In this document: piece by piece, positions 15,230-21,999 of the stretch
Numbering within the stretch: position 1 is the stretch's first letter
How the letters are laid out: each line of letters starts with the position of its first letter
From: a virus
Taxonomy: Duplodnaviria; Heunggongvirae; Uroviricota; Caudoviricetes
IMG/VR virus record: IMGVR_UViG_2565956631_000014
Coordinates: 1 to 23,166 of that record
Length of the DNA stretch: 23,166 nt
Strand: one strand, 5' to 3'
Program-made: the position numbers and the translations under genes
The notes under the pieces: model-generated
Databases searched by the model: none
What the model saw: only the letters and a program-made list of their open reading frames with translations
Told to the model about the DNA's origin: nothing

Positions 15230-15868
15230 TTAATTGCGAATGGAATCGCGGAACTCTTTACTTGATAGAAAAGGATCTGTTCTCCTTAACTCATCATAGT
15301 TTTTATTAAACTTTCTTGCTTCACCAGGGTATCTGTTGAACAAAACATTGCAGAAAAAAGAGAGCAATAACTCACATATAAATGCTAATATCCTGAAAAA
15401 TAAAGGTATAAAAAGAAGGAAAGGTTCATTGAAGTCTCTATTCCAAACAAAATAGACAATCATCCCGACATACCAAATTGATATCCCTATACTGATGATT
15501 GTTCCAACAGAGGTAACTACGATCCCGATTAAGTCGGACAGTCTGTTTGCCAGTAACTCATTTGAGTATCTTGCAATCATATACCGCCAACATTTTGCAA
15601 TATCATCCTGATCTGTAGAGTCTTCTGGAATGGCTAGGCTTCTACATATTGAAGCAGCTCTTTTTTTCTCAACTCTTTTTGAGAGCCATCCATTAAAGAG
15701 ATACATCAACACCTGCGTTGCTATTCCTGCACCAAGTGATATCAAAGACATCCCCAAAAATCGCCATCCTGGAGATAGTGACTGGTACTGCCAAACAAAA
15801 AAAATTAAAAAACCCAATGAGCCTATGACATAGGCTGATGTATCGCTATATATATCTATTTTTTTCAT
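15230..15868 (-). CDS. multi-pass inner-membrane protein at the sieA position (candidate superinfection-exclusion protein)
   Basis: 212 aa from the internal ATG at 15868, which has AAGGAG 9 nt upstream (track ORF starts 11 codons earlier). Four to five hydrophobic helices (e.g. YVIGSLGFLIFFVWQY, LIGIVVTSVGTIISIGISIWYVGMIVYFVW) with charged loops. Visibly AT-rich relative to flanking structural genes. Convergent with the gp16-like gene. Confidence 0.6.
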   Translation of the reverse strand: MKKIDIYSDTSAYVIGSLGFLIFFVWQYQSLSPGWRFLGMSLISLGAGIATQVLMYLFNGWLSKRVEKKRAASICRSLAIPEDSTDQDDIAKCWRYMIARYSNELLANRLSDLIGIVVTSVGTIISIGISIWYVGMIVYFVWNRDFNEPFLLFIPLFFRILAFICELLLSFFCNVLFNRYPGEARKFNKNYDELRRTDPFLSSKEFRDSIRN

Positions 15869-15918
15869 TGAGTAGCCACTCCTTAGTTTTGAGCAGAACA
15901 CCGGATGATAATGTTTTG

Positions 15919-17179: not shown

Positions 17180-17266
17180 TTGGCGCACAGGACGGCGCAA
17201 AAGAAAACCGCCAGTGTGCTGCTGGCGGCCTATGTCACACCCTTACTACCACATAAGGAATGCCTA

Positions 17267-17995
17267 ATGACTTTTAAGAATGTAGCAAACATCGGATCCG
17301 TTGTCACGGATAAAACCATTGATAGCCAGTACCTGTTAGAGATGGTCAATCATGCTCGTAGACAGTGCGGGGAAAAAGAAGTCCGAAATAACGACTTTAT
17401 TGCACGCATTAAGGATGAACTTGAAGGTGAGCACTACGAAATTTTCGTAGTTCAAAAATCAAACAAGACAACTTCTGAAAAAGTTGTTATGTCAATTAAG
17501 CAAGCCCTTCGAGTGGCTGCTCGTGAATCTAAAGCTGTTCGCCGCTCACTTGTAGACCAACTTGAAAGTATGCAAGAAGCGCACATTAAAAGCGGTAAAT
17601 CGTCGAGTGGACTTGTTGAGTATCGCCAGGCGCGAACATTGAAAATGACGGTTGAAGCTGTTACCAATCTGTTCGATTTGATGCCAAATCTTGCGCCGGA
17701 AGCAAAGCAGACTGCGGCAGCAAGCATAATCAACCCGCTCGTTGGTTTTAATGCAATACCTCTTCCGGCAATAGAAGAGCATTACTACTCAGCAGGGGAG
17801 GTTGCAGAGCAGCTTGGAGTAACGGCCAACAAGATTGGTCGCATTGCTAACGCAAACAACCTCAAAACTGAGCAGTACGGGAAGTTCTTCTTGGATAAAT
17901 CTGCGCATTCAAGCAAACAGGTGGAAGCATTCCGCTACAATGCGGAGGGTGTTAAAGCACTACAACACCTGATTCATGGGAGCAATGTTGCATAA
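17267..17995 (+). CDS. antirepressor-like protein with KilAC/ANT-type C-terminal domain
   Basis: 242 aa from ATG 17267 (AAGGAA SD; track ORF starts at 17180). C-terminal YYSAGEVAEQLGVTANKIGRIANANNL fits the KilAC/ANT pattern found in the C-terminal half of P22 Ant; N-terminus is Rha-like. Confidence 0.5.
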   Translation: MTFKNVANIGSVVTDKTIDSQYLLEMVNHARRQCGEKEVRNNDFIARIKDELEGEHYEIFVVQKSNKTTSEKVVMSIKQALRVAARESKAVRRSLVDQLESMQEAHIKSGKSSSGLVEYRQARTLKMTVEAVTNLFDLMPNLAPEAKQTAAASIINPLVGFNAIPLPAIEEHYYSAGEVAEQLGVTANKIGRIANANNLKTEQYGKFFLDKSAHSSKQVEAFRYNAEGVKALQHLIHGSNVA

Positions 17996-18216
17996 TGGCA
18001 AAGAAAAGATATGGCATTATGCCGCCAAGAATCAAAGGAAGAGCCAGGGTAAAAGGAGATGCTGGAAGGTATCACATTCTTGGAGTTCTGTGGCATGAGA
18101 GAGCTTTAATTTTAAGTAGACCTCATGGGTACATTGAAAAGGTATCTATAGATAGAGTAGAGATTCTTCCCCTTACACCTGAAGAAGAAGAAACTTACGG
18201 ACTTTTTGATAACTAA
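17995..18216 (+). CDS. hypothetical small basic protein (73 aa)
   Basis: Start overlaps the previous stop (TAATG); followed 8 nt later by a strong terminator. No recognisable motif. Confidence 0.45.
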   Translation: MAKKRYGIMPPRIKGRARVKGDAGRYHILGVLWHERALILSRPHGYIEKVSIDRVEILPLTPEEEETYGLFDN

Positions 18217-18223
18217 CCAATTA

Positions 18224-18252
18224 AACCCGCTTAATCGCGGGTTTTTTCTTTT
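18224..18252. terminator. Rho-independent terminator (strong for + strand, possibly bidirectional)
   Basis: Seen directly: AACCCGC-ttaatc-GCGGGTT hairpin followed by TTTTTTCTTTTC on the + strand. The hairpin also contains the stop codon of the minus-strand Mnt-like gene. Confidence 0.75.
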
Positions 18253-18620: not shown

Positions 18621-21308
18621 ATGACAGACATTACAGCCAATGTTGTAGTGAGCATGCCTTCGCAACTCTTCACTATGGCGCGTTCTTTTAAAGCGGTTGC
18701 CAATGGCAAAATTTATATCGGTAAAATTGACACTGACCCGGTAAATCCTGAAAACCAGATTCAGGTTTATGTTGAGAATGAAGACGGTTCTCACGTTCCT
18801 GTTTCGCAACCAATCATCATTAACGCTGCTGGTTACCCGGTATATAACGGACAGATTGCCAAGTTCGTAACTGTGCAAGGCCACTCTATGGCTGTTTATG
18901 ATGCGTATGGTGCGCAGCAGTTCTATTTTCCTAATGTGCTGAAGTATGACCCTGATCAGTCATTGAAATATGTAGAAGGGGCATTGCTTGTTACTGACTT
19001 AGGTAATGGGACGTTTAAGAATAGTAGAAAAGACGTTGCCATTGGGGATAATCTAACAGGAACCAATTTTATTAGAATAAACGGCGGCGTCTATAAATGC
19101 ACTCCAGTTGCAACTGGAATTGTTACTGAGATCAAACATAGATACATTATCGCAGGCGGGGTTAAAAGCTACCTGTCTCATATTTCTAGGCATGTCAGTG
19201 GTACGCGTAGGCCGCTGAACTGGAAATTAGAATTCAGCATCATAGACGATGAGATTACCGCAGATCTTAAAGATCAGTATGGTTACACGACCATGGGATT
19301 TCAGGGGATTTACATAGACAGCAATGATGGAATGGTATACATCGGCTGGCAGACGCTAGACCCCGCATCGGTATGGGTTACGGTGCATGACTGGGTAACA
19401 GGAGCATTGGTAACACGTCTTCATTTTCCGAATAACGTTGGTGCACCAGAAGGCATCCACGTTTACCGAGTGGCAGGACAGCGTTACATCCTGCTGCCGT
19501 ACAGCCCATCTCGCACTATCAGAATTTACCCTATCGAAGATCCGCGTACGCTGGTTGATAAAACGCAGATTACAAACTTCACTGAATCAACACGCCTTGG
19601 AGTGCGATATCAGTTTAGTGGCTTTGGTAATACCCTGATATACGAAAATGCGGATATGGGTTGGCCGAAAATTTTTGATGTTGAGACAGGTGTATCCAAT
19701 ATCTTTAACACACTGGATATTAACAGCCTTATAGAAGGATCTTACAGTCCAATGGGGACTATTACGGTTGATGCAAATGTTGGAGGTCGCGGAGCCGGTA
19801 AACCAAAACGGCAGGGTGTCGCTCTTGGTTCTCAACGGATATTTGCTGGTATTGGTGCATCTACCACGGCGGGATCTGGAAATACTTTCGCAGGGTTGCA
19901 GGGTTATATTGAGTACAGCCTTAATGGTTCAGAATTAGGTCAGTACCTGCTGTCACCTGCAGATTTCAAAACATACTGGGATAGTTATTCAGGGAAGAGT
20001 GTTTACTCCACTGAAAATGAGGGGGTGCAGTCTTGTGATATTTCTGGCTCTGAGGAATTGTATCTTCTACAGTCTATTCGCTATGACAATGGGGGCGGAT
20101 CAAATTATAGGACTTTAAACATCATTCGCGCTAACTGTCCATCTAATGAACCTGGAACAGTAGACATGACTCCGCTATCCAATGCCTCATCACAGTTATT
20201 TAACCCTCGCGGAAGGGTGATTAACGCTGGCCGTCACCCTGTAAACCCGGCTGATGGTATTGCGCTATTTACATCGGCACAGGCTATTTGTGACTATTTG
20301 CGGAATACAGATGCAGGTAGATATGTGACATATCTTGAACAGGATATGCCACTGTTTGAAGGTGGGCCATCTGCGCCAGGACAGATGACGCTGCCAGCAT
20401 TCTGCCTATTGCAGATCGACTTCATCAACGGCGATACCTGGGAAATTACAGTTAATGGAACTAACAGGGCTAATAATTATACAGGAAGGATTTCCAAAAA
20501 CGGCGGGTACAACTCTTTTACTAAGGTGTCCTCCCGCAGCATGTCGATTCTCGGATCCCCTGGTCTGGTTGATGTATCAATTCGCTCACCTAACTCACTA
20601 AATCTTCCAGAATTTGCTGGAGACTGGTCTACTGGTGTAAGTATAGGAGCTGCAGGTGGGGTGACAAACTGGCAGCCAGAAGGAACAGGTAACGGAGCAT
20701 TATGGGAGTCAGGATATGCAAAAAACCGTGTGTTGCAGATATTCATGTCCACAACATCAAAACTGTTCTTCCGCTACGCAGACGATGCTATTCGCGCAGG
20801 TAACACAGGCTGGGCTGAGGCATGGTCGTCGCTGAACACGACCGTCGATTCAAGTGGTTTCATCAAAAAAGCCTCTCCGGTTGTGAAGATTTTCTCAGAC
20901 GGTAGTAGTGAAACAAATCGCGAATCAGATGGGGTAACCGTCACACGGCTGGCATTGGGTGAATATCTGATTGAGGGTTGCGTAGGTCTGAATGCAGATG
21001 CTTCATGGGGGGGGATTGATGGTGGATTTGAAATACCGCAGGACCGAAACAAGCAGCCGCTCATCTGGCTGGATTATGTTGTTAACCAAGATGGATCTGT
21101 GTTGGTGAAAACGTTTCACCGCACTCATGATAACTCGCCCGTTTTTGCACGTAACGACATCCCTGGTGTTTCGAACGGTGACCCGATCGACATTCCTGCT
21201 AATCAATTCGTTTCTGTGCGAGTACAGATGCCTGAGGATTCTGCATGGAATAAGCTTAAGGAACAACTAAATAAGGCTGAATTGATAGAAGATGATGTTG
21301 TGGAATAG
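18621..21308 (+). CDS. tailspike protein: P22 gp9-type head-binding N-terminus, uncharacterised receptor-binding C-terminal region
   Basis: 895 aa; GGAG SD. First ~115 aa ([43 protein letters not shown]...VLKYDPDQ) are near-identical to the P22-family tailspike head-binding domain. The remaining ~780 aa show no motif I recognise. Confidence 0.85.
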
Positions 21309-21999
21309 GTCTGTGATATTGGCATAGGTATAAGTGTCCGCTATTTGGGTGGCATTACGCCACCTTTTCATCAATCCAGTCCGACCACCACTGCATCATT
21401 TCTCTGCGCTTAATGTAGCGGATGCCTCACTATCACATAGTGATGGTTCATTACTGGTTTGCATAATGGATAGAGAACTGAGGATAAAAGATATCCCAAA
21501 ACTCCAAAATCTCATCTTTAGGATTTGCAGAAAGGGAGGCGTGAACAAATACCTGCGCATGAAAACGGAACTAGTCCAGATGTGATGTTTGTGGTGATCA
21601 CATACATCATCAACGATGCTCGTTATGGTGAGTTTTATGACTGCCAAGTAATGTGAAAATTGCGATGCGTACCAAATTGTGTACCAAATTAAAATCACAA
21701 ATCATGAAACCCTTGTTCATGGCGGTTCTCAGGGGTATTGCGCGTAATCGTGAAACAAAAAGGTAGATTGTTGCTTACCGTCATTCATCATTAGGTTAAA
21801 TCCGTTGTTTCTGCTGTCTGCCAGAGTATCAAATATCACCGTGCTAATCAGCTTTAGCGCAACAATTTGACAGCGAGTGGCAACAGATCATGTCAGATAA
21901 AAATGCGAGGGTAGTCACATTTTCTTGCACTTTATTCCAGCCAGTTCATAAGTATTTCCGTAAAAAGAACAGCTATTTGAAACTCCTGAGGGTTTGCTG

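Follow-up and report, generated by a model that had tools for sequence, protein, structure and literature searches.

Which kind of receptor-binding region can be carried behind a P22-type head-binding domain is the question raised by one gene in the viral record IMGVR_UViG_2565956631_000014, the whole 23,166-nucleotide (nt) stretch of which was analyzed (hereafter the window). The gene encodes a protein of 895 amino acids (aa). A preliminary description, made from the DNA letters, had divided this protein into a conserved N-terminal module of ~115 residues and a receptor-binding region of ~780 residues (window 18966-21308, corresponding to aa 116-895), and had taken the latter for the product of a modular swap. 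Using structure prediction, fold searches, and profile comparisons, we find that the core of the region is a predicted five-bladed beta-propeller related to Gp45, the receptor-binding protein (RBP) of phage phi11. The explanation that, on balance, accounts best for the locus is that the usual right-handed beta-helix endoglycosidase has been replaced, via recombination just after the head-binding domain, by a module of another architecture.

The first 113 residues are a P22-type head-binding domain, which anchors the trimers to the tail. In a Pfam scan they matched PF09008 (Head_binding) over its full length (profile positions 1-113 of 113) with an E value of 2.5e-67, and they are 93-94% identical to the N-termini of known tailspikes (94% for CUS-3, 93% for Sf6 and HK620). 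The PDB chains of Sf6 gp14 (7sg7) and P22 (2xc1/1lkt) were matched as well. As in P22, Sf6, and HK620, the gene lies downstream of the immI genes arc and ant at the end of the late region; in the window, the upstream immI genes encode an Arc repressor and a Bro-N/P22_AR_C antirepressor. Judged from its sequence and position, the gene is the receptor-binding tailspike of a P22-like temperate podovirus, here a prophage. In 11 complete Escherichia coli genomes, the same gene is present at ≥98.6% nucleotide identity and is annotated only as a "phage head-binding domain-containing protein." The 90%-identity cluster of the protein has 182 member sequences, and PHROG 20129, an end-to-end match, carries the label "unknown function."

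Beyond aa ~114-120, no sequence similarity to the tailspikes of P22, Sf6, or HK620 remains. The assignment of the N-terminal module in the preliminary description is borne out, as are its remarks that the protein is much longer than its P22 and Sf6 counterparts (895 aa versus 667 and 623 aa, from PDB chain lengths) and rich in Gly, Ser, Thr, and Asn, which make up 33.6% of aa 116-895 versus 23.5% of aa 1-115. The two motifs that it singled out are present, namely YIGWQTLDP at aa 240-248 (nt 19338-19364) and a 15-residue motif at aa 282-296 (nt 19464-19508). The further statement that the ~780 residues contain nothing recognizable was correct insofar as no characterized tailspike matches them, but it does not apply to aa 739-872, which belong to Pfam family PF25670. 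Searches of Pfam, NCBIfam, and PDB sequences gave no match for aa 116-738. Close identity to a characterized tailspike was likewise not encountered, as no phage genome was found that covers at least 80% of the protein.

Whether the region is a beta-helix or adopts another fold was addressed by structure prediction. An initial full-length AlphaFold model built from seven close sequences was not usable (mean predicted local distance difference test [pLDDT] score of 39.8). A model of aa 116-738, calculated as a monomer from 13 sequences (seven close homologues and six distant relatives), had a mean pLDDT of 71.6, with aa ~205-345 at 86-94. Its strand pattern consists of five four-stranded blades that extend from aa ~200 to ~515. 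When the PDB was searched with Foldseek, the best matches were phi11 Gp45 (5efv, E 1.5e-12) and the tail fiber of phage P68 (E 4e-12), and the best matches in BFVD were the tail fiber of Staphylococcus phage vB_SscM-1 (E 9e-23), the appendage of Bacillus phage GA-1, and a fiber of one E. coli podophage. The top structural matches are all five-bladed propellers, and the closest fold is the five-bladed platform of the phi11 Gp45 type. Almost all of the remaining fold neighbors are enzymes, including glutaminyl cyclases, glycoside hydrolases (GH) of families GH43, GH159, GH32, GH62, and GH117, and an N-acetylgalactosamine deacetylase. The model gives aa ~200-515 the fold of a Gp45-type beta-propeller with five blades. 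Because the model and both fold searches converge on this answer, we rejected a beta-helix depolymerase, and no beta-helix or pectate-lyase family match was found.

The tailspike thus shares its anchor with P22, Sf6, and HK620 and differs from them in its receptor domain, which in those phages is a parallel beta-helix endoglycosidase. A precedent for the fusion of a P22-type head-binding domain to a propeller-containing receptor domain exists in the endosialidase tailspikes of CUS-3 and K1F. These endosialidases have a GH58 sialidase propeller of six blades, together with a nested barrel and an S74 chaperone (see also 10.1101/2023.11.22.567924). The propeller described here has five blades, and Pfam detected neither a sialidase nor an S74 match in the window protein. 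For the glutaminyl cyclases, the YjiK C-domain, and the GH43/GH159/GH32 glycosidases, the likeness is at the level of fold only, with no sequence relationship to the tailspike.

To place the region in a sequence family, aa 116-738 were compared with 1.84 billion representative proteins by phmmer, which returned just 12 matches; a further word-indexed homologue search with the family profile added nothing new. The distant matches, at 20-30% identity and with Providencia as the named members, are tail proteins with Tail_spike_N or P2-fiber N-termini and either a Peptidase_S74 chaperone or nothing at the C-terminus. One Providencia relative (P0014, E 9.8e-9) in turn matches Staphylococcus phage HHU-22 (E 1e-18) and vB_SscM-1 (E 2e-8), as well as tail proteins of isolated Gram-negative phages, among them E. 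coli, Salmonella, and Erwinia phages: Kayfunavirus LI10P1, vB_Eco_ZCEC02, vB_EcoP-U8, EK8, PBM-2/3, HC6, 6947, ST1UNAM, and Erwinia phage UCB24. Because P0014 bridges the window protein and these Staphylococcus and Gram-negative phage proteins, the relationship is one of homology and not only of fold resemblance. Consistent with this, hhalign aligned the family profile with the HHU-22 baseplate-region protein over 395 columns (E 3.9e-35, probability 99.9%) and with the ZCEC02 tail fiber over 495 columns (E 5.2e-28, probability 99.8%). The profile contains P0014 and three further distant relatives (P0016, P0017, and P0018) that are nearer to HHU-22 and ZCEC02, so that these values describe a transitive chain, of which each link is significant alone. 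Both alignments extend from the propeller through the domain behind it, as far as aa ~624, and preserve the E-G, K-R-Q, and E-x-E-G motifs. On the strength of these sequence comparisons, the propeller and the domain that follows it form one superfamily with the HHU-22 baseplate protein and the fibers of T7-like E. coli phages.

The RBPs of isolated phages in this superfamily (HHU-22, ZCEC02, vB_EcoP-U8, LI10P1, EK8/PBM-2, HC6/6947, and UCB24) resemble the tailspike in the propeller and first post-propeller domain. They differ from it in sequence, with only ~22% identity, and BLAST did not match them to the window protein directly. The ZCEC02 fiber differs further in having a T7 tail N-terminus with Tail_spike_N adaptors and Peptidase_S74 in place of PF25670. 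In the literature searched, no receptor data were found for the related phage isolates. Several fiber genes of isolated E. coli and Salmonella phages, including that of ZCEC02 (L018:1736-4591), are annotated as "endo-N-acetylneuraminidase." These GenBank labels hinted at an endosialidase relationship, which we rejected; the ZCEC02 protein, the only one so annotated that was scanned, has T7-tail, Tail_spike_N, and Peptidase_S74 matches in Pfam and no sialidase domain. The label probably derives from the S74 "chaperone of endosialidase" domain.

As judged from the model, the nearest solved relative of the tailspike propeller is the platform of phi11 Gp45. Gp45 consists of a stem, a platform (the five-bladed propeller, residues 142-439), and a tower; it binds the N-acetylglucosamine (GlcNAc) of wall teichoic acid and has no reported enzymatic activity (PMC4901313). 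Its putative GlcNAc pocket, formed by M164/Q165, T211, and M329/Q330, lies on the propeller face that overlays the active site of glutaminyl cyclase, which is a fold neighbor of Gp45 as well (PMC4901313). Gp45 (PDB 5EFV, Pfam PF21311; related to the P68 and NF5 Gp17 fibers) and the tailspike have in common a five-bladed platform followed by beta-rich distal domains, glutaminyl cyclases as second-tier fold neighbors, and conserved residues that fall in corresponding motifs of the inner strands (Q-x, Y-R, R-x-Q, Q-G, and E-x-E-G). The two differ in sequence (~11% identity), in attachment (a coiled-coil stem on a siphovirus baseplate versus the P22 head-binding domain), in the Gram-negative host of the tailspike, and in its additional C-terminal PF25670 domain.

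At the sequence level, the connection is weaker. All 20 sequences of the Gp45-family profile carry PF21311, for which no match was found in the tailspike (E ≤ 1) or in any of the 13 family members (E ≤ 10). Compared with Gp45 as a single sequence, the family profile gave no significant hhalign match (probability 0.08%); F227-Q228 was placed on M164-Q165 in this alignment also. Against the 20-sequence Gp45-family profile, the full profiles aligned with E 1.3e-4 (probability 54%) and the propellers alone with E 2e-5 (probability 77%), both out of register, with blades 1-2 on blades 4-5. A weaker in-register alignment, which is not significant (E 0.09), places F227/Q228 on Gp45 M164/Q165, R397/Q398 on M329/Q330, and E465/E467 on E385/E387; E277 corresponds to T211 by motif position. 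Neither the post-propeller region (E 0.12) nor PF25670 aligned significantly with the Gp45 tower in hhalign.

The residues that are conserved in the propeller suggest where its function resides. In every blade, the inner strand begins with invariant polar residues, as seen in the alignment and model. Across the family, including the distant relatives, the invariant positions are W252, E277-G278, K396, Q398, G412, P446, E465-N466-E467, and D515. In the hhalign alignments, the blade 2 motif reads GEG in HHU-22 and SEG in ZCEC02, the KRQ of blade 4 is kept in both, and the blade 5 motif reads ESEG and ENEG, respectively. At equivalent points, the Gp45 family has an invariant Q330-G331 in blade 4 and E385, E387, and G388 in blade 5.

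Based on these observations, our slightly favored hypothesis is that the protein is a propeller tailspike that works mainly by multivalent glycan binding and not by O-antigen cleavage of the beta-helix type. The tailspike would form a homotrimer anchored by the head-binding domain, with three propellers around the axis and thus 18 per virion. Each propeller would bind a host surface saccharide in a pocket on its central face; the putative pocket is lined by the invariant Q228, E277, R329/Q331, K396-R397-Q398, and E465-x-E467, where the GlcNAc site of Gp45 has been proposed. Adsorption may then proceed by multivalent glycan binding, as was proposed for Gp45, and the target would not be a repeat unit of one serotype-specific O-antigen.

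Several points weigh against this hypothesis. The structural model is a monomer from only 13 sequences. The direct link to Gp45 is moderate, with profile probabilities of 54-77% and a best alignment that is out of register, and pairwise comparison of the tailspike with Gp45 was not significant (z 2.7 local, z 0.43 semi-global). Three carboxylates and a lysine do not vary between Staphylococcus and E. coli phages, although these phages have chemically different receptors, a pattern that fits catalysis or metal binding better than specificity. To our knowledge, the characterized P22-like tailspikes (P22, Sf6, HK620, and CUS-3) are all enzymes, and a short-tailed phage must get through the O-antigen layer somehow. 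Finally, the O-antigen loci of lysogens, which we used as a proxy for the receptor, are indirect evidence of receptor range.

Some of these points speak for a competing explanation, in which the propeller is itself an enzyme (a glycan depolymerase, an esterase/deacetylase, or a phosphodiesterase) with E277, K396/R397/Q398, and E465/E467 as the active site at the central funnel, and would process the surface polysaccharide in the manner of other P22-like tailspikes. The charged residues are invariant down to ~20% identity and are kept in HHU-22 and the ZCEC02 fiber, and the fold neighbors other than RBPs are almost all enzymes. However, Pfam, NCBIfam, and PDB sequence searches linked the region to no enzyme family. 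The five-bladed propeller glycoside hydrolases (GH43/GH32/GH62/GH159) are recognized by a family signature and catalytic Asp/Glu residues, neither of which was found here: the carboxylates expected of a GH43/GH32-type enzyme in blades 1, 3, and 4 are absent, their places being taken by Q, R/Y/Q, and K/R/Q. No enzymatic activity has been reported for Gp45, the closest solved relative, and hosts of five O-types share the same allele, which would be unusual for a linkage-specific depolymerase. We therefore regard an enzymatic propeller as possible and the less probable of the two. Doubtful, to a greater degree, is the more specific proposal that the E277/K396-R397-Q398/E465-x-E467 cluster is the catalytic center of an unrecognized family of phage enzymes that process surface polymers. 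Were this so, platform RBPs of the phi11 type would generally be enzymes and not pure adhesins, and the P22-like phage would cut a conserved envelope glycan that is not serotype specific.

The O-antigen clusters of the lysogens bear on the choice of target. Three of the 11 lysogens (MS14384, ECamp083, and SCU-109) carry OgN12 (serotype source, PMC10024524), a cluster that is rare (18 of 5,426 genomes), and specificity for a single O-antigen at first looked promising. It was rejected because of lysogens with other clusters, namely O16 in TO6, O25-type in WP7-S17-ESBL-01, O7 in HCM-26C-1, and O88 in XJ55, which has the module on another phage backbone. Because the same allele is found in hosts of at least five O-types, a single serotype-specific O-antigen is unlikely to be the target. 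Two shared sugars were also considered. Galactofuranose was rejected as the link since glf occurs only in O16 and OgN12. L-Rhamnose is a weak candidate for a common epitope: rfbBDAC is present in all four O-types of the full-length allele, but rfbD is found in 42% of genomes, and O88 has a different reductase. Of the earlier proposition that a modular swap changed the polysaccharide specificity of the phage, the swap stands; the change in specificity and the enzymatic activity are unsupported, given the five or more O-antigen clusters and the role of Gp45 as a binder. Two of the O-antigen clusters appear damaged. In MS14384 (L004:18783-19758), an EpsG-family (wzy-like) gene is split into two open reading frames (ORFs) beside insertion sequence remnants, and the O25 cluster of WP7-S17-ESBL-01 (L009:10068-11130) contains a frameshifted ORF. 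These could be real defects or assembly errors.

The propeller is followed by three further parts. The first post-propeller domain is modeled as one helix and four strands with a pLDDT of about 70-80, and P0014 and P0016 match the tailspike to about aa 615. The second region, aa 625-738, is shared with ZCEC02 and with P0009 and P0010, both of which end there without a further domain, and is replaced in P0014, P0016, P0017, and P0018; its pLDDT of 25-80 leaves its fold uncertain. No internal repeat was detected by hhalign in the post-propeller region, as its two halves do not match each other. The third part, at the extreme C-terminus, is a full-length match to PF25670 (profile positions 1-133 of 133). 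The tailspike C-terminus (aa ~700-890) is 47-69% identical to the C-termini of lambdoid "tail fiber" proteins of HK446, mEp234, HK544, and Flotzy; for the PF25670 domain, identities are 58-69% to HK446, mEp234, Flotzy, and Salmonella SW-37, and aa 727-872 match the C-terminus of SU10 gp12 (PDB 7z47_D). With the lambdoid side tail fibers (HK446, mEp234, and HK544) and SU10 gp12, the tailspike shares this domain, whereas everything upstream differs.

The presence of this domain raises the alternative that, as in side tail fibers, the actual receptor-binding tip is distal and formed by PF25670, and that the propeller is an accessory platform for primary, reversible contact or is mainly structural. 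The domain is always found at the extreme C-terminus of tail fiber proteins from many phage types (the PHROG members and lambdoid fibers), and its high identity to lambdoid fiber ends implies that it was acquired as a unit. We nevertheless consider a PF25670 tip rather improbable. P0009 and P0010 end after the post-propeller region, and other relatives have Peptidase_S74 at this position, so that the propeller module works without PF25670. In SU10, the domain ends gp12, the proximal long-fiber protein, and not the distal protein, and only residues 1-90 of gp12 were built (PMC9509320). This location at the elbow end of the proximal segment hints at a docking or capping role for the domain and not at receptor binding. 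SU10 gp12 is also the only PDB sequence with PF25670, and that part of it is unmodeled; no structure or function is on record for the family, and no paper mentioning PF25670 or WP_023145944 was found in the literature searched. Because the relatives have the S74 chaperone or nothing in its place, we read this position as a folding or capping slot, and we consider PF25670 less likely to be the core binder than a domain for folding, capping, or secondary contact.

The propeller is one of several modules, and the region behind the head-binding domain is a mosaic and not one block. The preliminary description had treated it as a single swapped unit, which is right in that it is exchanged as a module behind other adaptors but overlooks its composite nature. 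Of 1,130 E. coli genomes with any match to the tailspike gene, ~1,100 match only nt 1-340, which locates a recombination junction at aa ~113-114; conservation in the close family begins at aa ~120. The block of aa ~120-895 is found at 65-75% identity behind at least four other kinds of N-terminus, with PF18668 (Tail_spike_N), PF26208, PF12571 (P2-type), or no adaptor, and the hosts of these close homologues are E. coli and Kluyvera. A second recombination junction falls at aa 175-182 (gene nt 523-544), from which point a 99.5%-identical copy continues on a different prophage backbone in three E. coli genomes (XJ55-type). Both junctions fall in the linker and small neck, in which beta strands are modeled at aa 144-187 (pLDDT of about 65-79). 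Since aa 118-183 (window 18966-19170) also occur alone, at 55-57% identity, in the otherwise unrelated database proteins P0012 and P0013, the neck appears from sequence to be a separately exchangeable module.

Judged by the searches made, the close family is rare and swaps N-terminal adaptors between phage types. Among 185,579 species reference genomes, that of Kluyvera intermedia was the single one with a member, and five IMG/VR contigs had one, all with the same allele; tblastn with the propeller region gave no match in 50,697 phage records.

That the gene has been seen only in prophages, and never in the genome of an isolated phage, invites the suspicion that it is a decaying chimera in a defective prophage, without current function. 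This we consider very improbable. The 895-codon ORF is intact, the database members are near identical, the gene is conserved in the 11 genomes at several attachment sites, and the family shows strong purifying conservation. In addition, two records from wastewater E. coli assemblies (NZ_CP146561.1 and NZ_CP146567.1) contain the whole phage as a 39.9-kb circular molecule, which points to a phage genome that is excised or circular and may be active, and not to an integrated prophage.

The window comprises the right part of the P22-like E. coli prophage, and the tailspike gene follows the immI region and adjoins the prophage end. In the annotation of the matching TO6 prophage, the terminase, portal, scaffold, coat, gp4, gp10, and ejection proteins are of the P22 type. 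Where other genomes match the prophage only, the match ends ~100 bp downstream of the tailspike gene, while the matches of ET151 and XJW9B263 run past this point to 23166. Chromosomal dacD, whose product matches Peptidase_S11 and PBP5_C, begins at 21994 after the prophage end, and the prophage/chromosome junction (window 21412-21994) lies between sbcB and dacD. No tRNA gene is present there. In other strains, the same tailspike allele is carried by prophages inserted either beside intS at argW or at the sbcB/dacD site, and the module therefore travels between prophages that differ in their site of integration. The features are listed in Table 1.

Table 1. Features of the tailspike gene and prophage end, in window coordinates
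Feature	Position	Strand	Basis or remark
Tailspike ORF	18621..21308	+	895 aa, stop = TAG
Head-binding (virion-anchoring) domain, P22-type, aa 1-113	18621..18959	+	Pfam PF09008
Linker and small beta "neck," aa 114-200	18960..19220	+	two recombination junctions; strands in model
Five-bladed beta-propeller ("platform"), aa 201-515, probable receptor-binding core	19221..20165	+	predicted structure and fold search
F227-Q228-G229, inner-strand motif, blade 1	19299..19307	+	Q nearly invariant in family alignment
A275-P-E277-G278, motif at blade 2 start	19443..19454	+	E277 and G278 invariant in 13 sequences to ~20% identity
K396-R397-Q398-G399, motif at blade 4 start	19806..19817	+	K396 and Q398 invariant in family alignments
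E465-N466-E467-G468, motif in blade 5 first strand	20013..20024	+	E-N-E invariant in family alignments
First post-propeller alpha/beta domain, aa 516-624	20166..20492	+	conserved with propeller across superfamily
Second post-propeller beta region, aa 625-738	20493..20834	+	variable between subfamilies
C-terminal fiber domain PF25670 (Phage_tail_C_2), aa 739-872	20835..21236	+	Pfam E 2.1e-59
Short acidic C-terminal tail, aa 873-895, then stop codon	21237..21308	+	sequence and close-family alignment; variable in family
Approximate right end of prophage	21412		prophage-only matches in other genomes end there

Module exchange among phage RBPs and propeller RBPs are both known, and the present findings are an incremental advance and not a new principle. 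In the literature searched, we found no description of the enterobacterial branch, of its fusion to the P22 anchor, or of its apparent independence from a single O-type. The findings indicate that the exchange of tailspike modules reaches beyond the usual replacement of one beta-helix by another, and that a Gram-negative podovirus uses, via the P22 head-binding adaptor, an RBP architecture whose first description came from the baseplates of Gram-positive siphoviruses. The same module is used with other adaptors in T7-like phages and in phages of other genome sizes and adaptor types. As this propeller-RBP family has neither a Pfam model nor a characterized member, a domain model of aa ~200-625 would mend many annotations. 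Among the carriers of the allele are clinical E. coli isolates (urine and blood) with O25, O16, O7, and OgN12 clusters, and if a receptor that is not tied to one O-type is confirmed, the module would be a candidate for broad-range adsorption in engineered phages or diagnostics.

Two observations concern the region upstream of the tailspike gene. A strong intrinsic-terminator-like hairpin (8 pairs with a T-run, window 18223-18244, + strand) directly follows an ORF of 73 aa, at ~375 bp before the tailspike start; between this hairpin and the gene, no good sigma-70-like promoter was seen. In P22-like phages, superinfection-exclusion or defense genes often occupy positions such as those of three ORFs of the immI/moron region that are without a Pfam match: 15230-15901 (− strand, 223 aa), 17180-17995 (+ strand, 271 aa), and 17995-18216 (+ strand, 73 aa).

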